Shown piece by piece: positions 40,784 through 50,837 of a stretch of 64,000 nt of DNA; the stretch's first letter is position 1; each line of letters opens with the position of its first letter. Origin of the DNA: Promethearchaeota archaeon (GTDB taxonomy: Archaea > Asgardarchaeota > Lokiarchaeia > Sigyniarchaeales > SOKP01); assembly GCA_019058245.1 (NCBI GenBank), contig JAHPZJ010000013.1:137166-201165 (forward strand), written 5' to 3'. The translations under genes were made by a program, and so were the position numbers. The notes under the pieces are model-generated. The model was given only the letters and a program-made list of their open reading frames with translations, ran no database searches and was not told the origin of the DNA.

Positions 40784-42004
40784 ATGCTCCTTTTTGAGAA
40801 TAAAGAACAAAAATTGCTAAATCTCCTAAACTTTACCGGATCACCGTTTAAAAAGTTTGTTTCTACAGGAGAAATCGAAGAAGATATTGGATTAGTCCAA
40901 TCAAGAGAAGAATTCTTACATTCTATCATCAGCATATTAGATAAAAATGAAAATGTCATCCTGCCAATTATTGGAGACGTTGGAACTGGAAAAACCCATC
41001 TATATTGGGCTTTAAAGCATGAGTTATATTATTATAATATTGTCTTTATTTCCTTAGAAAATGTTGTTAAGAAATTTTATTACAATATATACTCTGAATT
41101 CATAGAAAATATGGGTATAGACATTTTAAGAAATATTTCTCGAAGATTGTGTAATAATTGGGGTGCTTTAGAAAGAAAATTTGGTTTTTTTCATGTAGCA
41201 GAAATTAATAAGGTTAAGAAAGTTGCTTGTGAAGAATGGGCACCTAAATTCGAAAATGAAGAATCAATTATGGATATTATAAATGCAATAACAGCTCATC
41301 AATTAGATCCATATAAAAAAATAGAAGTTGAAAGATGGTTTTTGGGAGAAGTAATAGATATAAGGGATCTTTCAAGATTGAACTTAAAAAATGATTTAAG
41401 AAAAAGGGATAATGCATATACTATGCTTAAAGTACTAGTTGAAAATGCCATGGTAAATAGTGTATTATTCATAGATGATTTCGAGAAAATTGTCTCAATG
41501 ATGAAACCTATACCAATAGAAGAACAAAAAGAAGAAGTTTTTGACAAAAGTTGGCTTTATGGGAGTAGTGAATCACCTCAAAAACGTTCTGCTAATAAAA
41601 TATTAGATAAAATTGTGAAATTAAATAATATAAATGGTTTAAGAATTATTATTACATTAAAGTCATTTGATTTTTATGAAGAAATCATACGAAAATTTGA
41701 AGACATAGACTCCAATCTTTTAAAACTAATAAAAAAACCTATCATCCTATCTAATTTTGATGATGATGATGTTTTCACATTTTATAAAAAAAATTTAGAA
41801 TTTTTTTTTGGTCATCTCAATTATTTTGATTATTTTCGAGATTTTTCCCAGTCTTATTTTCCCCTAAACAAAGAAGTATTAAAAAACATTTTTATCCAAA
41901 CGAAGGGTAATCCTAGAGAAATAATAAAGTTTTTAATAAAAATTTTTAATGACATCATATTTTCAAATGAAGAATTAGAAGAAATTCTTAAAAAATATCA
42001 GTAA
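40784..42004 (+). CDS. P-loop ATPase (AAA+-like)
   Basis: Walker A GDVGTGKT, Walker B LFIDDFE, TKGNPRE. Confidence 0.82.
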   Translation: MLLFENKEQKLLNLLNFTGSPFKKFVSTGEIEEDIGLVQSREEFLHSIISILDKNENVILPIIGDVGTGKTHLYWALKHELYYYNIVFISLENVVKKFYYNIYSEFIENMGIDILRNISRRLCNNWGALERKFGFFHVAEINKVKKVACEEWAPKFENEESIMDIINAITAHQLDPYKKIEVERWFLGEVIDIRDLSRLNLKNDLRKRDNAYTMLKVLVENAMVNSVLFIDDFEKIVSMMKPIPIEEQKEEVFDKSWLYGSSESPQKRSANKILDKIVKLNNINGLRIIITLKSFDFYEEIIRKFEDIDSNLLKLIKKPIILSNFDDDDVFTFYKKNLEFFFGHLNYFDYFRDFSQSYFPLNKEVLKNIFIQTKGNPREIIKFLIKIFNDIIFSNEELEEILKKYQ

Positions 42005-42014
42005 TTCAATTTAT

Positions 42015-42749
42015 TTATAAATTCTTTAAAATTATTTTTTCATATATATCTATTTCTTTAAAATAATTATCTTTATATCCAATTTCCCAATTTGAATTTG
42101 AAATTCTTTGCCGCAATGATTCTAAATTAAGCACAGATCTAAAATATAATAATAATATGATTCTAATCGAATGTGACTTTAAAATTTTGTAGTTCTCTAA
42201 TTCATCTAAAGCATTAAACAAATAATCTAAGTCTGGAAAAAATTTACTTAATATTTGTGTGCAGAGTGTTTCTAAATCAGAATCCTTTGAATTTAATATT
42301 CGAAATAAATTCTTTTTCATACTATTTGGAAATTCTTTTAAATTTAAAATTACTCGAAGAGCATTAATTTTAATTGGAGTATAATCATCATTTATAGCAT
42401 TATTTATTAAGTCTATAACTGGGTCAGTTATATCAGAATTTGCAGTAATTTTTTCAATCGCTTGCATTATCTCATTTCGAATCCATCTATCTGATGTATA
42501 ATAGGCCTCCAATAAAAATGTTAGATACTTCTCATTTAATATTGTTGTTTTACCAATCTCTCCTATAAAAAATATTAAATTTATTTTGACCTTATTAAAA
42601 ATCTGTTTATTTAAATTCTGAATTAAGTAATCTATATATATTAGATAATCCTTATTTGGGTTTTCACTTATTTTTATTAAAAAATCATTTATAACTTCTG
42701 GATCTTTGGCATCTTTTATTTCTTCAAAGTCCTTATTCAAAAATTCCAT
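42015..42749 (-). CDS. HEAT-repeat protein
   Basis: DRWIRNEIMQAIEKI and DDYTPIKINALRVI repeats. Confidence 0.7.
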   Translation of the reverse strand: MEFLNKDFEEIKDAKDPEVINDFLIKISENPNKDYLIYIDYLIQNLNKQIFNKVKINLIFFIGEIGKTTILNEKYLTFLLEAYYTSDRWIRNEIMQAIEKITANSDITDPVIDLINNAINDDYTPIKINALRVILNLKEFPNSMKKNLFRILNSKDSDLETLCTQILSKFFPDLDYLFNALDELENYKILKSHSIRIILLLYFRSVLNLESLRQRISNSNWEIGYKDNYFKEIDIYEKIILKNL

Positions 42750-42904: not shown

Positions 42905-43141
42905 TTATTTTACAGCTTCAAAATAAATATACCATTGTTCATCATCATCAATGAATTCTGTTCCCAAATGTTTATGTTTAGTTTTTGCTAAATCACGTGG
43001 AACAGATTCACTTGCCGGTTTGTAATCTGTTATTACTTTTAAAACAGTTCCTGGTCTCATTTTCATGAGTTGTTTTTTGGTTTTTAAAGCAGGAACAGGA
43101 CATACCGACCCGCAGACATTTAATTCCATATCATATTTCAT
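42905..43141 (-). CDS. tusA: TusA-family sulfur carrier
   Basis: GSVCPVP, VLKVITD. Confidence 0.88.
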   Translation of the reverse strand: MKYDMELNVCGSVCPVPALKTKKQLMKMRPGTVLKVITDYKPASESVPRDLAKTKHKHLGTEFIDDDEQWYIYFEAVK

Positions 43142-43181: not shown

Positions 43182-45650
43182 TTAATCACATATAATCGAA
43201 AATATTGGTTCCTCCATCTTAGGTTCAGATTTCATCTCTAATTCCATTAATTGAACTAAACGGAGTGCTTCATACCTTGCTTTCTTAGGATCGAGACCTG
43301 TTTGGTTTACGATCTCTGTAATAGTACTAGGACCTTGAAGTGATATATAGTTTAAGACTTGTTGTCTTGGAGTTTTTTCAAATTTCATCAATTCACGTTT
43401 AGTTTTCAGGTTAATAGCATCTTTCAAAGCTTCCTCGTCAACTTTTCCTTGTTCGAATAAACCTTTTTTAATAGCATCTTCAACAAGCTTTTTGCCTCGT
43501 TCTGTCCATACTAACACTGTAGTATAGCCTTCTTTCGAACCTACCTCACCAGCAGTAAGATCTGAATATATGGCAGGGAAATCTTGACAATGAGAACAGA
43601 AATGATTACAACTTAGACATCTTCGAGCTTCTTGTAAAGCCATTTCTTCATTAAACATCTGATCAATTTCATCAAAATTCCAATTAATCTCTTCAGTTGC
43701 TGCGTCTAAAGTTTCTGGTTTCAGAGAATAATCTTTTGGAGGTTTCTTAGGGCCTGTAAAAAATGATTTATCTATCTTATATCTTCCTTCCATCAAATTC
43801 TCTCCCTTTAAATATCTATCAATAGAAATTGCTGCTTCTTTTCCATGAGCAATTGCAGCAATAGCTACAGCTTTAGAATTACTAATAATATCTCCACCAG
43901 CAAAAACTCCAGGAATATTAGTTTCAAACGTTATTTCATTTACTTTAATTCTATTTCGCTCTTTTTCTAATTCATTATTTGTTGCAACATCTATCTGTTC
44001 GAAATCTACGGCCTGACCGACTGCTATTACAATGGAATCAACAATTATTTTATAATCCGATCCTTCAATTTTATTTAATGGTCTCCTTCCATTCTTATCG
44101 GGATTACCCCATTCAATATTATAACAATTTAAAACTAATTTTTCATCTCTATCCTGAGTAATTTTAGAAGTGGAAGTCGTGAAGTGAAAATTTATAAACT
44201 CCATTTCATTTTCAGGAATATCTCTTAAGACCAATTCAAGTTGTTCTTTTGACATGATATCAACAAGATGAACTTTTTCAGCACCTAGTCTAAGAGCCGT
44301 TTGAGCAACATCAACTGCAACTGCCCCTCCTCCAATTATGCCTAAAGTTTTACCTTTAAATTCTTCTTTATTTTCCCAGTATCGATATTTTCTATCCATC
44401 AGGAAATGAATTGCCACATGCACATTTGGTAAATTTTCACCTTCTAAGTGTAAAGTACGAGGTTTATATTGTCCAGTAGCAATAAATATAGCCTCAAATC
44501 CTTCATTATTCAAATCTTTAATAGTCATCTCAGGACCCAATGGTTTATTTAGTTTTACTTCGACACCAGAATCTATGATTCTACCTACATCATAATCTAG
44601 TACATAATTAGGTAATCTAAATTGTGGTACACCAAATCTTAGCATTCCTCCAATTTGATCTGTCTTTTCAAATATTGTAGGGGCATAACCCTTTCTCCTT
44701 AAAAAATATGCCGCTGTTAATCCCGCTGGTCCGGATCCAATAATTGCTATTTTTTTAGCATTTTTAGGTAATTTGGCGTTTACTTTTGCTCTATTTTTAG
44801 CACTTTCAATTTCCCATTCAGTAACAAATTTTTTTAATTCACGAATCGCAACAGGATGATCATCTCCAATTAATGTACAACCATGTTCACACTCATTTGT
44901 ACAAATTCTTCCACATATAGAGGGAAGTGGATTGTTTTCTCTAATTAAGTCTACAGCATCTTGATATTTGCCTTGACGTATTAATGAAATATAGCCTTGA
45001 GCATTAACACCAGAAGGACAGCCATTGCAACATGGAGAACAAACTAAGCCTTTATCAGTTTGTTCTGTTCTCATTTGGGAACTACAAAATAAACCAATTT
45101 TTAAAATTTCTCTATTCATTTCTTCTTCAAGATCAGCAGCTCCACGCATTTCACATGGTACACCTACAATACCAATTGGATCAAATGTTTTCCCTGTAAG
45201 TTCTACTAATCGTTTTAGGACACCAGATCTACCATAAATAACACCAGCTTTTTGGATTACTTCATTAGGATCTGACACAATCTCGGCTGCAGGCTTCTCA
45301 TCTTCTTCTTGAACCATTACAACCTCTTTAATAGATTTACTTCCTAACAATTCTTTAACAAAAGTAGTTACAAATCCTCCACTTGAAGCTTTCTTTAAAA
45401 TATCTGGATCTTTACTTCTTAACGAATAAATCGCAAAGGGTTGCTCCTTTTTAAATTTTTTCTGGATTACTTGAGGACAATTTTGATAACATTTTCCACA
45501 ATCTTGCCCATCTCTTTCTAATATACAATAGTCTTTTAAAGTAGGACGTCTTAGATCCATTTCAATATGTTTACATGAACCAGCACATAATCCACATCCT
45601 TGACATAGACCGGCATCTATAATTTCTTGTCTTAATAATTCAAAACTCAT
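43182..45650 (-). CDS. FrhB-like F420-binding subunit with inserted GltD/NfnB-like flavoprotein module and C-terminal wHTH
   Basis: CQGCGLCAGSC, SSGGFVT, VGVPCE, IGLFC; then NPLPSICGRIC, GSGPAG, GGGAVAVD, FAGGD; then CSHCQDF...SDLTAGEVGS...TERG. Confidence 0.85.
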   Translation of the reverse strand: MSFELLRQEIIDAGLCQGCGLCAGSCKHIEMDLRRPTLKDYCILERDGQDCGKCYQNCPQVIQKKFKKEQPFAIYSLRSKDPDILKKASSGGFVTTFVKELLGSKSIKEVVMVQEEDEKPAAEIVSDPNEVIQKAGVIYGRSGVLKRLVELTGKTFDPIGIVGVPCEMRGAADLEEEMNREILKIGLFCSSQMRTEQTDKGLVCSPCCNGCPSGVNAQGYISLIRQGKYQDAVDLIRENNPLPSICGRICTNECEHGCTLIGDDHPVAIRELKKFVTEWEIESAKNRAKVNAKLPKNAKKIAIIGSGPAGLTAAYFLRRKGYAPTIFEKTDQIGGMLRFGVPQFRLPNYVLDYDVGRIIDSGVEVKLNKPLGPEMTIKDLNNEGFEAIFIATGQYKPRTLHLEGENLPNVHVAIHFLMDRKYRYWENKEEFKGKTLGIIGGGAVAVDVAQTALRLGAEKVHLVDIMSKEQLELVLRDIPENEMEFINFHFTTSTSKITQDRDEKLVLNCYNIEWGNPDKNGRRPLNKIEGSDYKIIVDSIVIAVGQAVDFEQIDVATNNELEKERNRIKVNEITFETNIPGVFAGGDIISNSKAVAIAAIAHGKEAAISIDRYLKGENLMEGRYKIDKSFFTGPKKPPKDYSLKPETLDAATEEINWNFDEIDQMFNEEMALQEARRCLSCNHFCSHCQDFPAIYSDLTAGEVGSKEGYTTVLVWTERGKKLVEDAIKKGLFEQGKVDEEALKDAINLKTKRELMKFEKTPRQQVLNYISLQGPSTITEIVNQTGLDPKKARYEALRLVQLMELEMKSEPKMEEPIFSIICD

Positions 45651-46888
45651 ACATATCCCTCTTTAATTTTAATTTTTTTTACAATACCAATTGGATCAAT
45701 TGTAAATTCAATTGAACCATTCTTATATGTTCCTTCGATCACTTCAAAAGGGTGTGCCTTATATTCTTCAAAGTCATCATTCTCATCAATTTGCGACCTA
45801 AATCCTCCATAAGATAAATTAGATAAATTCATATTTCCAGCAATTTTTCGAATTTCTTCAGTGATTTTCTTATATTGTTCTGGATCTTTACTCTGAATTG
45901 CTTTTTGAAGTGCATTTTCCAGTTTTAGTAATTGATTTCGATAATTTTTCGTTTTTTCACTTACTTTAATATTATTAGCTTCCTCATAAGTTTCAATTAT
46001 TTTTAGAGTCAATGAGATTGAATGATCTCCTCCTAATAACCCAGAAATCAGAGGCAACTCTTCAATAAGTCTTCCAGTAAAAACATCCTCTAATAAATTT
46101 CCATTTGAAGGAATTCGACCTTTTGGCAATCCTGATGTAGGTAAAGTAAATCTAAAGAAATTACCTACAATATCAGGCAAACTTGCAGTTATATCATCAT
46201 CTTCATCAGCTAATTTATCAGTTGCTCCCTTTTCAGAATGTTCAGTCGCAACTTCAATATTTCCCATAAGAGTTCCAAACATTCCCAACATTCTGATTCC
46301 AGAACGTTCTATTATTGGTTTACAACCTCTACATGGAGCATTATAGTCAATACACCTTTCTTTACATTCTTTTGAAACAAATCCATTGCAAAGATACCCA
46401 AGATCATTGAAACATGTCTCGTTATCCTCTAACTCAATTTGTCGTTTTAACTCATCTAAATAATCACATGTTTTTCGTCTTTCGCATACAATACAGAGAT
46501 TTTGTAATTTTGGGAGTTCATTATCTTCAATCTCAAATTTCAGTTCCTCAATTTCCCCTAAACAACCATTAATATTAATTGTATCTTCGATAAAATTCTT
46601 TAATGGAGATACATCATGACCTTTTTGATTAGCCAGAGCAAAAATACCTCCTGATGTAGCACAATTTCCATAAGCAATTACTCTTTCTGAATTTGCTTTT
46701 ATCTTATTTAGGGTTTCTTTATTCTTTGAAAGTAAAAATCCAGTAATTATTGATATATCGGTCTTTTGTTCTTTCCAATTTTGAGGATCTTGTATAAATT
46801 CTATGTTATATTTGGATTCTCCTTTTAGAAGAATCGTCTCATTAAAGCATTTATTACATCCATTAAACTGGAATATTCTAACATCCAT
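45647..46888 (-). CDS. MvhG/FrhG-like Fe-S subunit with C-terminal extension
   Basis: GCNKC, AYGNCATSGG, INGC, LCIVC, CFNDLGYLCNG...C...C...PCRGC. Confidence 0.8.
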   Translation of the reverse strand: MDVRIFQFNGCNKCFNETILLKGESKYNIEFIQDPQNWKEQKTDISIITGFLLSKNKETLNKIKANSERVIAYGNCATSGGIFALANQKGHDVSPLKNFIEDTININGCLGEIEELKFEIEDNELPKLQNLCIVCERRKTCDYLDELKRQIELEDNETCFNDLGYLCNGFVSKECKERCIDYNAPCRGCKPIIERSGIRMLGMFGTLMGNIEVATEHSEKGATDKLADEDDDITASLPDIVGNFFRFTLPTSGLPKGRIPSNGNLLEDVFTGRLIEELPLISGLLGGDHSISLTLKIIETYEEANNIKVSEKTKNYRNQLLKLENALQKAIQSKDPEQYKKITEEIRKIAGNMNLSNLSYGGFRSQIDENDDFEEYKAHPFEVIEGTYKNGSIEFTIDPIGIVKKIKIKEGYV

Positions 46889-47330
46889 CTTTGAAAGTCC
46901 CCTCCTCTCTAATTGCAGTTGCTAATCGTTCTACAATATCTTCAAAGTCTCCGACTGCTGTTTCTCCCTCTGCAGCTCTCGAAGTATATTGATTAACAAA
47001 CTGATCACTATAACCTAACTCCTTAAATAATTTTTTCATTAATTTTATTCTATGCATGGATAAAATATTCCCATTAAAGAAATGACATGCACCTAAACAA
47101 CAACCAACACAAGCAACTGCATCAGCTCCATTGTCTAAAGCGTCCATAATCTGAATAGGACCAACTTGACCTGTACATTGGACTCGAACTATTCGAATTG
47201 CAGGATTATATGCCATTCGAGCAACTCCTGCAGTGTTTGCTGAACCTTGTCCGCATTCATTACACATAAAAACTACAATATTTTCCATCTTTTCCAATAC
47301 TTCTGGTTCAATATATTCACATTCACTCAT
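46878..47330 (-). CDS. mvhD: MvhD [2Fe-2S] subunit (Cys form)
   Basis: FMCNEC, IVRVQCTG, GADAV...GC...CHF..GN. Confidence 0.9.
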   Translation of the reverse strand: MSECEYIEPEVLEKMENIVVFMCNECGQGSANTAGVARMAYNPAIRIVRVQCTGQVGPIQIMDALDNGADAVACVGCCLGACHFFNGNILSMHRIKLMKKLFKELGYSDQFVNQYTSRAAEGETAVGDFEDIVERLATAIREEGTFKDGC

Positions 47331-49359
47331 TTTCGCATATAGCACCTCCTCCTGAAATTGCGATTATTTCATCTAATAGTTGATCATCGCTAAAATTTAA
47401 TAATTGAATTGCTCCTGTAGGACATACAGGCATACACATACCGCACGATTTGCAAGCAACTTCATTTATCTTAGGTGTCCCATCATTATTTATTTCTATC
47501 GCCGCTGGTGCACAAACAGTCTTACATAAACCACATCTAACGCATAATTCATAATCTACTGAAGGAATTAACATCTCTTTTTCAATATATCCTTTAACCA
47601 ATGGAGCAGCAGCTATTGCAGCAGCATTACCTGCTTGAGCAACACTTTCAGAAATATCTTTAGGACCTTGAATTGCTCCCGCTAAAAATATTCCTCCTTT
47701 ACTGCTTAAAGTTGGATTCATCTTAATGTGGAATTCTTTTAAAAATCCTTCTTTTGAGCGTAGAACCTGTAGTTTTGATCCTAACGGACCGATACCTTCG
47801 GGTGGAACCATTGCAGCTGATAGTACAACCATATCTGCTTTTAACTTTAAAGGAGTTTGACTTAAAGTATCTTCAACAATTACTCTCAGATTCCCAGAAA
47901 TTGGATCTCTTACTATTTCGGAAGGACGTCCTCTAATAAATCTTACTCCAATTTCCTGTGCAGATTTATATAATTCCTCAAAATTCAATCCAGGTGTCCT
48001 TATATCAATATAACAAATAGTAACATCCGAATCTGGATACATTTCTTTTACAATCCTTGCATTTTTAATTGCGAATTTGCAGCAAACTCCTGTACAATAT
48101 TGATTCCCTACTTGATCGTTTCTACTTCCTACACATTGTATCATTACGATACTTTTGGGAATTTTTCCATCAGAAAGACGTAAAACTTGACTGTTAGTGA
48201 GAGAACCAGGAGCTAACATCCTTTCTAATTGGAGTTGTGTTATAACATCTTCATACCCCTCTTGACCATAATGGTATGCCTCAATCTCTGAAGGGTCATA
48301 CTCGTCATAACCAGCCGCTACAACAATAGAACCAACTTTAAAAGTTTTAGTTTCTGTTTGCATTGTAAAATCTACTGCTTGTACGGGACAAACATTAATA
48401 CATGTATTACATTCTATACAACTCTTTTTATCTCTCATATATGTGGCGGGAATTGCTTGTGGATATGCTTTATAAATTGCATTTCTCATTGACATTCCAC
48501 TATCCCATTCACTAGGTACTTCAACAGGACAATGTAGGGCACATTCACCGCAAGAAGTACAATTATCTTTAACATATCTTGGTTTTATTTCAACCTCTAC
48601 TTCAAAATTACCCATTGAACCCTCTACACTCTTAACTTGAGCATTAGTATAAAGTTCTATTAATGGATGATTAGCTACTCCATTAGTTAGTGGAGAAATA
48701 CTACATTGTGGACATTCCAATGTTGGAAAAGTTTTATTTAATTGTGTCATATGTCCTCCGATTGTAGACAATTTTTCTATTAAATAAACAGGAATTCCTA
48801 ACTCTGCTAAATCATATGATGCACGAAGCCCTGCAATGCCAGCACCAATAACTAATGCAGCTTTCGTTGTAGGAATTCTCCGTGTCTCAACATCTTTTAA
48901 CTTTCTTGCCCTATTTACTCCAGCTTCTACTAACCTCATTGCTTTATTGGTTGCTTTATCTTTCTCTTTTTGATGTACCCAACTATTAAATTCTCTAATA
49001 TTTACTTGTTGATGTCTATGTCTATTAAGTCCCATTTCTTCTATTGCTTTAGCAAAAGTCTTTCCATGTTGGTTTTTTGAGCATGAAGCCACCACTGTTC
49101 TATTAACATCTAATTTTTCAATTGAATCTTTAAGCATTTGAACTCCCGGTTTTGAACACATAAACATATAATGTTCAGCTTTAATCACATTAGGTAAATC
49201 TCTAGCATAATCTGCTACTTTAGCAACATCAACAGTTCCTGCGATATTATGCCCACAATGACATACAAAAACTCCTATTCTAGGTTCTTCTTCTTGTTTA
49301 TTTTTATCTTTTTTGCTTATAACGTTTGATTCAGTTATTTTTTCATCTTTTACGGTCAT
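47323..49359 (-). CDS. hdrA: Heterodisulfide reductase subunit A (Cys form)
   Basis: GVFVCHCGHNI, GAGIAG, KTFPTLEC, IQCVGSR, YCTGVCC, GPKDI and four ferredoxin motifs. Confidence 0.95.
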   Translation of the reverse strand: MTVKDEKITESNVISKKDKNKQEEEPRIGVFVCHCGHNIAGTVDVAKVADYARDLPNVIKAEHYMFMCSKPGVQMLKDSIEKLDVNRTVVASCSKNQHGKTFAKAIEEMGLNRHRHQQVNIREFNSWVHQKEKDKATNKAMRLVEAGVNRARKLKDVETRRIPTTKAALVIGAGIAGLRASYDLAELGIPVYLIEKLSTIGGHMTQLNKTFPTLECPQCSISPLTNGVANHPLIELYTNAQVKSVEGSMGNFEVEVEIKPRYVKDNCTSCGECALHCPVEVPSEWDSGMSMRNAIYKAYPQAIPATYMRDKKSCIECNTCINVCPVQAVDFTMQTETKTFKVGSIVVAAGYDEYDPSEIEAYHYGQEGYEDVITQLQLERMLAPGSLTNSQVLRLSDGKIPKSIVMIQCVGSRNDQVGNQYCTGVCCKFAIKNARIVKEMYPDSDVTICYIDIRTPGLNFEELYKSAQEIGVRFIRGRPSEIVRDPISGNLRVIVEDTLSQTPLKLKADMVVLSAAMVPPEGIGPLGSKLQVLRSKEGFLKEFHIKMNPTLSSKGGIFLAGAIQGPKDISESVAQAGNAAAIAAAPLVKGYIEKEMLIPSVDYELCVRCGLCKTVCAPAAIEINNDGTPKINEVACKSCGMCMPVCPTGAIQLLNFSDDQLLDEIIAISGGGAICENE

Positions 49360-50277
49360 TTAAGCAACCTCCTCTTCTTTAGTCAATTCTTCTCCCCCAA
49401 AAATAAAATCTCGTCCCATTAATTGATATTGAAGACCAATAAATTCTTGGTCCATTCCCATACAATAGGCAACAAGCTGGGAGATATGAATTACAGGATA
49501 ATCATAATTACAGCTTTTATTTTTATTTAAATAATCTTGCCCTGTCTCAAATTGTAAATGACAAAATGGACAGATATCCAATATTATATCTGGTTTTACC
49601 TCATCGATATTTTTCATTTTTTCTGCAAATATAGTCATACTTGCATTGCCATCGTAAGCTTTTACTCCTCCACCTGCACCACAACAAGTAAGTTGTTCTT
49701 TAAATCGTACAGATTCGATTCCTAATGCTTCAACAAAATCTTCGATAATTGTTGGACCTTCAGAACTTTCAATTTCTCTAATTCTCGTTGGCTTTAAGAA
49801 ATGGCAACCATAATGAATCGCAGCTTTAACATTTACTTTCCTTACTATGTAATCTTCAATCCCCCAAGGTCCAATTTCATATCCTAAAACTTCAGCTATA
49901 TGACGTACGTTAATCGTACCTTTAAATTCATAGTCTCCAAGTAATTTAAGTTTCTTATTGACCATTTCACGATGTTCTTCGTTTTGTTTAAGATGTTTAT
50001 TTACTTCTTGGAGTGTACCAAAGCATCCATTACAAACTGTTAAAATATCAGCATCCAATTTTTCTGCAATACATAAATTTCTTGCTGCTGCCACCATCCA
50101 ATCAAATTTATTAAAAGAACGGAAAACTCCTGGAGCAGGGCAACAAGTTGCTCTTTCCATATCTAAGAGTTCATATCCTAATTTTTCCATGACAAATTTT
50201 GTTGATTTCTCGATAGCAGGATATCGATTTGGCATTATACACCCTAAAAAGAATGCAAATGTGTTTTCTTTAACCAT
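49360..50277 (-). CDS. hdrB: Heterodisulfide reductase subunit B
   Basis: FLGC, CCPAPG, CNGC, HYGCH, CCGAGGG, CPFCHLQF. Confidence 0.95.
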   Translation of the reverse strand: MVKENTFAFFLGCIMPNRYPAIEKSTKFVMEKLGYELLDMERATCCPAPGVFRSFNKFDWMVAAARNLCIAEKLDADILTVCNGCFGTLQEVNKHLKQNEEHREMVNKKLKLLGDYEFKGTINVRHIAEVLGYEIGPWGIEDYIVRKVNVKAAIHYGCHFLKPTRIREIESSEGPTIIEDFVEALGIESVRFKEQLTCCGAGGGVKAYDGNASMTIFAEKMKNIDEVKPDIILDICPFCHLQFETGQDYLNKNKSCNYDYPVIHISQLVAYCMGMDQEFIGLQYQLMGRDFIFGGEELTKEEEVA

Positions 50278-50279
50278 TT

Positions 50280-50837
50280 TTATGACTCCTCCTCTTCTTT
50301 TTTCTCCTCCTTAACTGGAGGTAAATCGAACATATATTCTTCAATCTTCTTTAAATCTTTATCATCACCCTCTTGTTTAAATTTAAACGCAGTAGGGGGT
50401 AATTCTTCTAATCCTAATTCGACTCGTCGTTTTCTTACCTCATCATTTATTGGTACAGCATGTCCAAAATTCTTCAAGTATCCTACGACAGCTCTATGAT
50501 TAGGAGAAATATTGCCTAATTTAGTCGCATAATTCCTTAATTCCATAATTACATCGGTAGGTCTTACATCACGTGGACATCGTTCATAACATTGATAACA
50601 TGTCGTACAAAGCCATATATCTGGATCTTTTAATACAGATAAATCTCCTAATACAACTTTTCTTATAATTGAACGAGTCTTTAAAGCAGTCCATCTTCCA
50701 CTTTCACAACTTGCCGTACAAGTTCCACACTGGATACACCGCCAAATATTTGATTTTCTTTCAATATTTTTGAAAAATTCTTGATCAAAATCTTCGTCTG
50801 TTTTATATTCTCTTGCTTGTTCTTCTACATCAGACGT
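50280..50837 (-). CDS. hdrC: Heterodisulfide reductase subunit C (185 aa, ACG start)
   Basis: CIQCGTCTASC and WLCTTCYQCYERCPR both lie upstream of the first ATG (50546); the frame opens at ACG 50837 right after TGA TAA, behind AAGGTGA. Confidence 0.92.
   Translation of the reverse strand, partial: TSDVEEQAREYKTDEDFDQEFFKNIERKSNIWRCIQCGTCTASCESGRWTALKTRSIIRKVVLGDLSVLKDPDIWLCTTCYQCYERCPRDVRPTDVIMELRNYATKLGNISPNHRAVVGYLKNFGHAVPINDEVRKRRVELGLEELPPTAFKFKQEGDDKDLKKIEEYMFDLPPVKEEKKEEEES

Follow-up and report, generated by a model that had tools for sequence, protein, structure and literature searches.

Several donor arms have been described for HdrABC, including those of the Mvh-, Fdh- and Elp-Hdr complexes. 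In ElpABC-HdrABC of Methanothermobacter marburgensis, the arm consists of an F420H2 subunit of the FdhB/FrhB type, a cofactor-less protein derived from FdhA (ElpA) and an MvhD homolog (ElpC) (PMC12350162). In HdrA9-11 of ANME-1 and in the ‘type III HdrA’ of Bathyarchaeota and ANME-1, an NfnB/GltD domain is inserted into HdrA and was read by the authors as a direct NAD(P)H port (PMC9012536, PMC12054007). FrhB homologs are also clustered with glutamate synthase genes in FGltS, as separate subunits (PMC3448663). Here we analyze a 64,000-nucleotide stretch of DNA, the window (positions 137,166-201,165 of the forward strand of contig JAHPZJ010000013.1, assembly GCA_019058245.1), from a metagenome-assembled genome (MAG) of a Promethearchaeota archaeon (GTDB lineage Asgardarchaeota; Lokiarchaeia; Sigyniarchaeales; SOKP01). 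The gene at 43182-45650 on the minus strand encodes an 822-residue protein, referred to below as the target, in which a cassette of the GltD/NfnB type lies inside an FrhB domain. Like the subunits of the Mvh-, Fdh- and Elp-Hdr arms, it is encoded together with HdrABC and MvhD, and it is a candidate electron-input subunit for that complex.

The open reading frame of the target contains no frame breaks, and the G+C content of the window is ~27%. From the N-terminus, the protein consists of a ferredoxin domain with two [4Fe-4S] clusters, the N-terminal half of FrhB, a GltD/NfnB-like cassette of ~483 residues, the C-terminal half of FrhB and a winged-helix tail. The Pfam domains FrhB_FdhB_N (residues 75-146), Fer4_20 (190-283), Pyr_redox_2 (300-603) and FrhB_FdhB_C all score above the curated cut-offs. 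FrhB_FdhB_C is split, with profile positions 4-49 at residues ~158-200 and positions 65-149 at residues ~653-739, and Fer4_20 and Pyr_redox_2 fall between the two pieces. A first-pass annotation, made from the sequence alone, had described a GltD-like module nested in FrhB; the Pfam and NCBIfam layout bears this out, and all the motifs it cited are present in the translated frame. The best NCBIfam model is PRK12771, which covers residues 195-688 with a score of 400.9 against a cut-off of 516. No equivalog cut-off is reached in the NCBIfam scan: the frhB model TIGR03289 scores 71.9 (cut-off 331.5) and the FpoF model NF040616 scores 77.3 (cut-off 475).

The cassette interrupts the ligand set of an iron-sulfur cluster. 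In F420-dependent sulfite reductase (Fsr), the cluster of the FrhB domain is bound by the motif PC-X40-C-X54-C-X2-C (PMC10229431). The corresponding motif in the target is C166-X22-C189-X495-C685-X2-C688, and P165 and all four cysteines are invariant among the 38 homologs over which residue invariance was scored. The cassette thus sits between the second and third cysteine ligands, a spacer of 54 residues in Fsr, ~20 in un-inserted Asgard orthologs and 495 in the target, so the flavin domain that is continuous in the FrhB/FpoF/Fsr-N family is broken here. In other respects the host module resembles Fsr-N, FpoF and the FrhB-like chains of 8RJA/8RIU, which come from a study of F420-reducing carbon monoxide dehydrogenase and formylmethanofuran dehydrogenase (Fwd) in an ethane-oxidising archaeon. 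All combine a ferredoxin domain carrying two [4Fe-4S] clusters with an FrhB flavin domain and a PC...C...CxxC cluster, a module that serves a larger redox enzyme as its F420 ‘plug-in’. Residues 1-66 of the target align to Fsr's N-terminal ferredoxin domain and to the C-termini of FrhG, and represent an extra domain like that of FpoF. The N-terminal half of FrhB aligns to Fsr, 8rja_E and FrhB structures; the C-terminal half, from its CxxC-D motif onward, aligns to 8rja_E, 8riu_B, Fsr and FrhB structures including 3zfs_C. The nearest solved FrhB-like chains, those of Fsr and 8RJA/8RIU, belong to F420-dependent enzymes. Based on the invariant cysteines, the target is predicted to hold five [4Fe-4S] clusters (two in the ferredoxin domain, one in FrhB and two in the cassette) in addition to two flavin sites.

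An assembly or gene-calling artefact, in which a GltD gene was mis-joined into an FrhB gene, would also produce such an arrangement, and the first-pass annotation had named a chimeric assembly as one outcome that would overturn its claim. Apart from the odd layout itself and the 76% completeness of the source MAG, nothing points in this direction. A homolog search of 5.8 billion proteins, with clusters from NCBI, JGI, ENA and Logan, returned more than 120 clusters with 71-89% identity to the target. All are 817-825 residues long with the same set of Pfam domains, and they come from Lokiarchaeota or Promethearchaeota MAGs, where they are named only ‘FAD-dependent oxidoreductase’. The search for this architecture elsewhere, which the first-pass annotation had suggested, was therefore positive. 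Contigs from three studies, of sediment, soil and marsh, span both junctions between FrhB and the cassette with no joint there. Given these independent clusters, the dozens of genomes described below and the intact reading frame, an artefact is excluded. When the homologs are clustered at 50% identity, just two more full-length clusters appear, P0122 (56% identical to the target) and P0123 (46%). Among 301 Asgard genomes, full-length matches are found in dozens of genomes of the family and order of the window and, with one exception, nowhere else. The exception is a 10.2-kb contig (G295:C137, locus L024) in a MAG of a different Asgard family with 9% contamination. Its operon is 69-94% identical to that in the window, and it shares an unusual ACG at the start of hdrC. 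This contig is probably a binning contaminant rather than a case of gene transfer.

Orthologs that lack the cassette were found by searching for the neighboring MvhG-like gene across the phylum and examining its flanks. In another Asgard family, f9 (G055, G005 and G075; loci L041-L043), the corresponding protein joins the ferredoxin domain to an uninterrupted FrhB domain and ends with the winged helix; Pfam detects FrhB_N, FrhB_C and, weakly, HTH_20. These proteins match residues 1-201 of the target and then, within ~7 residues, residue 685 onward. The insert (residues ~202-684) replaces about five residues, and the site of insertion is thereby located with a precision of a few residues. The f9 genes occupy the same position in the same operon, with the order HdrC-B-A-MvhD-MvhG-like-X-TusA, which suggests that the FrhB port is ancestral. 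A further reduced form is encoded in the complete 4.36-Mb genome G213, which belongs to the same order as the window. Here, the gene following that of the MvhG-like protein (L040, 9868-10293, minus strand) encodes a 142-residue protein with the ferredoxin domain and winged helix only. The ferredoxin domain and the tail are thus constant whereas the hydride-accepting modules vary, a pattern that suggests a constant anchor for the subunit formed by the two terminal domains.

Judged by its alignments, the cassette is a circularly permuted form of GltD, as found in NfnA of Bfu-type NfnABC (9N5U/9N5V, 9BOV) and StnC of StnABC (8OH5). These subunits are its best solved relatives (9n5u_A, 9bov_A and 8oh5_C; E 1e-94 to 1e-76, Foldseek E 2e-33) and are colinear with residues 203-684. 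The N-terminal region of canonical NfnB (4ylf_B residues 12-43), as well as residues 21-45 of 5jca_L, aligns to residues 651-682 of the target. The small subunits of NfnAB/GltD (4YLF, 5JCA, 2VDC) share with the cassette Fer4_20, two Rossmann domains, the FAD motifs and eight cysteines for two [4Fe-4S] clusters (C207, C211, C246, C250, C254, C258, C678 and C681 in the target, all invariant). They differ in having the canonical order, an NADPH-specific YRR motif and a separate partner subunit. The gltA equivalog score of the cassette is 294.7 against a cut-off of 471.75, and the canonical order, with the helix and CxxC first, is not found. The first-pass annotation had described a GltD-like module running from SPCCNGCP to EARRCLSC. 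The assignment to GltD/NfnB stands, but the order is not the canonical one, and EARRCLSC is the permuted helix and CxxC of the NfnB start.

The permutation bears on how one redox module can be accommodated inside another. The cassette both begins (C207, C211) and ends (C678, C681) at Fe-S ligands, so its two ends are probably near each other, which makes insertion into a loop feasible. This also leaves the last CxxC of the cassette only three residues from the CxxC of FrhB. NfnA and StnC are not arranged in this way. They retain a YRR site, their module lies between other domains in chains of 963-1178 residues, their partners are HydBC-like, and none is inside an FrhB fold; the partners of the target are Hdr, MvhD and the MvhG-like protein. 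None of the molybdopterin or other extra domains of the long NfnA and StnC subunits was detected in the target by Pfam or NCBIfam.

The nearest relatives of the cassette are Lokiarchaeial Fer4-GltD-CCG proteins of ~920 residues, one of which, 56% identical, is encoded on contig C17 of the same genome. Next are GltD modules fused to HdrA, MvhD or CCG domains; in a search of representatives, the closest sequences include cassettes of HdrA-fusion proteins. In trees of the module, with branch support from the Shimodaira-Hasegawa-like approximate likelihood ratio test (SH-aLRT), the Lokiarchaeial sequences form one clade (support 99) in which the inserted P0123 branches first, and the main inserted clade has three Fer4-GltD-CCG paralogs as its sister group (support 100). 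To account for these well-supported branches, the host must have changed at least twice, and the cassette therefore moved between host proteins. As in the target, the insertions in HdrA place an NfnB/GltD cassette of ~480-500 residues in an Fe-S-binding segment of an Hdr-system protein. Their host is an inserted ferredoxin domain of HdrA, whereas the host in the target is the cluster loop of FrhB in a separate subunit with a winged helix. Compared with the HdrA fusions, the target is predicted to be a protein with two flavins and two hydride sites.

Contig C17 (78000-95000; locus L027) provides a separate observation. Its 920-residue Fer4-GltD-CCG protein carries the same NADH-type motif as the target, and the locus also encodes aldehyde:ferredoxin oxidoreductase, a polyferredoxin, HdrA, MvhD and a divergent FrhB-like protein. 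The HdrA gene contains an in-frame TGA (L027 11297-11299) in a context that resembles a selenocysteine site.

The dinucleotide site in the second Rossmann domain was compared among 43 sequences and with alignments to five solved homologs. All five solved homologs read YRR at this site, where the target reads HLVDIMS, as the first-pass annotation had pointed out. The longer motif YRR(S/T)xxEMPA is kept in the five solved homologs, all outgroups, the other Fer4-GltD-CCG clade and the basal inserted P0123. The sequence (V/I)(D/E)I-x...QLEL, or a similar one, is confined to the main inserted clade and its sister paralogs. A classical determinant of NAD(H) binding is an acidic residue at the end of β2. 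The replacement of the YRR phosphate clamp by a conserved aspartate argues for a site that favors NAD(H) over NADPH, and the confinement of this switch to one clade supports the earlier hint of NAD(H) use. The basal P0123 retains YRR, indicating that insertion came first, that the clamp was lost for an acidic residue later, and that the new state has since been kept. Two other motifs are altered along with YRR: GGGNTAMD is changed to GGG(A/P)VA(V/I)D, and EMPA is lost. The GxGxxA/G core and D447 are invariant; D464 and QLEL are at least 90% conserved and under purifying selection.

The target is the last enzyme gene of an operon on the minus strand with the order TusA-DsrE-DsrF-DsrH-DsrE2-like-HdrCBA-MvhD-MvhG-like-target-TusA. 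The genes overlap by 23 nucleotides (HdrA/MvhD), 11 nucleotides (MvhD/MvhG-like) and 4 nucleotides (MvhG-like/target). The same order is found in all five related loci with enough flanking sequence and in the families with un-inserted orthologs. In those five loci, and in the genomes that both phylum searches listed, the MvhG-like gene adjoins that of the target. The MvhG-like protein has 13 invariant cysteines, a number sufficient for proximal, medial and distal clusters, as well as a C-terminal extension of ~150 residues. No [NiFe] large subunit is encoded in the operon; two are encoded elsewhere on the contig. In a profile search with the extension, these two large subunits rank first (residues ~40-102), with E values of 0.012 and 0.087 against a tiny database; with tblastn, E is 0.064. 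This is a weak hint that the extension may be a remnant of a hydrogenase large subunit.

This arrangement resembles Elp-Hdr in that a donor arm independent of hydrogenase, with an FrhB/FdhB-type subunit and an MvhD-type connector, is associated with HdrABC. The partner subunit is a truncated FdhA in Elp-Hdr and an orphan MvhG-like small subunit here. ElpB has neither an NAD(P)H cassette nor a winged helix, whereas the target has both. The substrate of Elp-Hdr is CoM-S-S-CoB, which would not be expected in the non-methane-making host of the target. With respect to F420, genes for CofD, CofE and Mtd are present in this genome; a search for CofG found none in this MAG, which is 76% complete, but 21 of 23 congeners have it. 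Together, these genes indicate that F420 is made in the lineage.

The C-terminal tail has no significant family by sequence (best Pfam E 0.12; ESM Atlas scores below 0.8). A model of the fragment is predicted to be a three-helix bundle with a β-hairpin wing, a winged helix-turn-helix fold, and the elements of this H-H-H-β-β arrangement have a predicted local distance difference test (pLDDT) score above 90. With this model, Foldseek returns only winged helix-turn-helix proteins (MarR, Z-alpha, ArsR and AspA; E from 4.5e-4), and Z-alpha superposes with a root-mean-square deviation of ~1 Å over 56-64 residues. The claim that such a domain ends the protein thus gains support from the predicted structure, though Pfam is silent. 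As the un-inserted orthologs and the 142-residue protein of G213 also carry the tail, it predates the insertion.

Based on these observations, we propose, with a probability of roughly 0.6, that the target is an NADH/F420H2 electron-input subunit for hydrogenase-free Hdr bifurcation, by analogy with Elp-Hdr. In Elp-Hdr, ElpB stands in for the hydrogenase of Mvh-Hdr; the target would do likewise, except that it would offer two hydride ports. NADH would reduce the FAD of the cassette, and electrons would pass through the two cassette clusters to the FrhB cluster, where they would equilibrate with the FrhB flavin and F420. HdrA would then split the electron pair between ferredoxin and HdrBC. In this non-methanogen, the substrate of HdrBC would probably be a disulfide or persulfide on the co-encoded TusA/DsrE proteins. 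Reduction of TusA/DsrE-bound persulfide by an Asgard Hdr has already been suggested in the case of a different Asgard archaeon, whose Hdr is linked to a hydrogenase (bioRxiv 10.1101/2025.07.22.663070). The FrhB port would be the ancestral one, an F420H2-dependent arm, and the insertion would have connected a second port, for NADH, to the same cluster node. The first-pass annotation had offered two functions, dual electron input to HdrA and an F420H2:NAD+ transhydrogenase. The first is favored because the genes for HdrA, MvhD, the MvhG-like protein and the target overlap in a conserved order; a free-standing transhydrogenase is less likely.

A number of observations weigh against this proposal. 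The F420 reactivity of the FrhB half is not readable from sequence, and some members of the FrhB family, such as HCAR (5dqr), use ferredoxin instead of F420; HCAR is among the structure matches. The complex of G213, which has wholly lost the FrhB core, apparently dispenses with either hydride port. With GGGNTAMD and EMPA lost besides YRR, the dinucleotide site could differ beyond a plain switch from NADP to NAD. The proposal assigns no role to the tail, which could anchor the protein within the complex or else contact DNA. The most distant inserted homolog (L021, 45% identical) lies 264 bp from a contig end, which cuts off its upstream context. The full-length AlphaFold2 model (pLDDT 68, predicted template modeling score 0.48, Fe-S regions below 50) is weak for packing or cofactor distances, and Foldseek with this model returns only GltD relatives, giving no structural support for re-joined FrhB halves. 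The use of ferredoxin by HCAR and the loss of the FrhB core in G213 would fit a protein with NADH as its only input, an NADH dehydrogenase arm of Hdr in which the FrhB halves serve as Fe-S/flavin relay and docking scaffold and do not react with F420. The FrhB segments are also the least conserved catalytic parts (17-19% invariant columns, compared with 24-42% elsewhere), and equivalog scores of the FrhB, FpoF and Fsr type are far under their cut-offs. However, purifying selection on the FrhB halves is as strong as on the rest: across nine congeneric genes, every segment has a dN/dS of 0.03-0.11, with 0.086 for the N-terminal half, 0.085 for the C-terminal half and 0.11 for the tail. All motifs of the FrhB family and its cluster ligands are invariant, the FrhB module was the sole hydride port of the ancestral operon according to the un-inserted orthologs, and the lineage makes F420. 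We therefore regard input from NADH alone as unlikely.

The target could also work outside the Hdr complex, co-transcribed with it, as a reversible F420H2:NAD+ transhydrogenase linking the F420 pool of the tetrahydromethanopterin (H4MPT) pathway to NAD(H). Such an enzyme would have two hydride sites of near-equal potential joined by three clusters in one chain, as predicted for the target. Mtd is present, and in 23 congeners no match to npdG/Fno reaches the family cut-off (~100 bits or less, compared with 149.8), although the absence of Fno is not claimed. However, the protein's most conserved part, the ferredoxin domain at its N-terminus, would serve no purpose in a closed enzyme with two sites, the target gene overlaps that of the MvhG-like protein and always follows it, and the un-inserted ancestor had a single hydride site in the same operon. 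These features make a stand-alone transhydrogenase quite improbable. A further alternative concerns the cassette alone: its dinucleotide site may be non-functional or still of the NADPH type, with the flavin acting only as a relay for one or two electrons or, like that of NfnB, as a second site of bifurcation. The change in three conserved nucleotide-site motifs rather than one speaks for it, as does the finding that the homologous flavin of NfnB is the bifurcating FAD (PMC9012536). The invariant core and D447, together with the strong conservation of D464 and QLEL under purifying selection, fit a changed specificity and not decay, and the acidic end of β2 is what an NAD(H) site would have. 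The chance that this alternative is correct is slim.

The input-subunit proposal may be extended, more speculatively, to a three-way redox hub. In this doubtful but conceivable extension, NADH, F420H2 and the bifurcating flavin of Hdr would share one [4Fe-4S] node; electrons would be bifurcated to ferredoxin and carrier-bound sulfur, and the protein would act as a reversible F420H2:NAD+ transhydrogenase when Hdr is idle. The cassette would be a mobile port for NAD(P)H that has entered the Fe-S loops of Hdr-system proteins repeatedly in Asgard archaea and ANME. We know of no F420H2:NAD+ transhydrogenase of the Fe-S-flavoprotein type; Fno has no cofactor of its own and is specific for NADP.

Among known archaea, the Asgard group is the most closely related to eukaryotes, and debate over its energy metabolism draws largely on gene lists. 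To our knowledge, the Asgard HdrABC has no known substrate or electron donor, and neither methane formation nor synthesis of coenzymes M and B is known from its hosts. The target would provide a concrete donor side for this complex, one using NADH and probably F420H2 rather than H2, and the TusA/DsrE neighbors are candidates for the acceptor side. It is also an example of how redox modules evolve: a permuted cassette whose ends meet at an Fe-S cluster was inserted into the cluster loop of another protein. The un-inserted ancestral form and a stripped-down derivative persist in related lineages, and the switch in cofactor specificity can be placed on the tree. These features may be of use in understanding and engineering electron-bifurcating complexes, and in studies of anaerobic bioenergetics and Asgard physiology. 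In a literature search whose coverage left out most subscription journals, we found HdrA-NfnB insertions, FGltS clusters and Elp-Hdr, but no paper on a GltD cassette inside FrhB. The target is a lineage-specific design assembled from known modules, with an FrhB-nested GltD not found in the literature covered by that search. The coordinates of the operon and of the segments of the target are listed in Table 1.

Table 1. Operon genes and target segments, in window coordinates (aa, residues of the encoded protein).
Feature	Position	Strand	Details
DsrE2-like, DsrH, DsrF/E, DsrE, TusA	50897..52806	-	Pfam; TusA at 52573-52806; upstream of the Hdr genes
HdrC	50280..50837	-	ACG at the start-codon position
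HdrB	49360..50277	-	TIGR03288, 369.9 bits (cut-off 345)
HdrA	47323..49359	-	NCBIfam HdrA2, 739.9 bits, under cut-off
MvhD, [2Fe-2S] connector	46878..47345	-	PF02662, 110 bits
MvhG/FrhG-like Fe-S protein, 413 aa	45647..46888	-	PF01058; VhuG/MvhG structures 9sw2_E and 5odc_E align to aa ~30-256
Target: N-terminal ferredoxin domain, 2x[4Fe-4S]	45453..45650	-	aa 1-66; Cys 16, 19, 22, 26, 42, 51, 54, 58 invariant (38 homologs)
Target: FrhB N-half	45048..45452	-	aa 67-201; PF04422, 54.8 bits (cut-off 22); FrhB_C profile 4-49; ligands C166, C189 invariant
Target: inserted GltD/NfnB-like cassette, permuted NfnA/StnC type	43599..45047	-	aa ~202-684; boundaries from un-inserted orthologs L041-L043
Target: cassette Fe-S part, Fer4_20	44766..45041	-	aa 204-295; PF14691, 83 bits
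Target: cassette FAD and dinucleotide Rossmann domains	43800..44765	-	aa 296-617; PF07992, 101.7 bits; GxGxxG, FE, GGML..G.P.FRLP, FAGGD invariant
Target: second-Rossmann dinucleotide site	44247..44342	-	aa 437-468; D464 replaces YRR of NADPH enzymes; D464 >=90% conserved
Target: linker and permuted helix/CxxC	43599..43799	-	aa 618-684; returns the chain to the FrhB cluster
Target: FrhB C-half	43371..43598	-	aa 685-760; PF04432, 68.2 bits (cut-off 23.3; two pieces); ligands C685, C688; D..D.(S/T).G..G motif
Target: winged-helix tail and stop codon	43182..43370	-	aa 761-822; fragment model pLDDT 85, H-H-H-beta-beta (predicted)
Second TusA	42905..43141	-	PF01206, 66.9 bits; directly downstream of target; also after un-inserted orthologs

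The start of hdrC (50835-50837, minus strand) is atypical. No ATG, GTG or TTG precedes its two Fe-S motifs, and the ACG at this position lies six bases after GGTGA, a motif resembling a Shine-Dalgarno sequence. Among the relatives, L026 and L023 have ATG here and L024 has ACG. The ACG represents either near-cognate initiation or a mutation of the start codon. A candidate regulator of the operon, of the Lrp/AsnC type, is encoded in divergent orientation (53100-53567, plus strand) upstream of the first TusA gene. Downstream, and outside the operon, are genes for a 244-residue protein with HEAT/adaptin-like repeats (42015-42749, minus strand; weak Pfam hits) and a 406-residue P-loop/STAND-like protein (40784-42004, plus strand). 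This pair is kept in L026.

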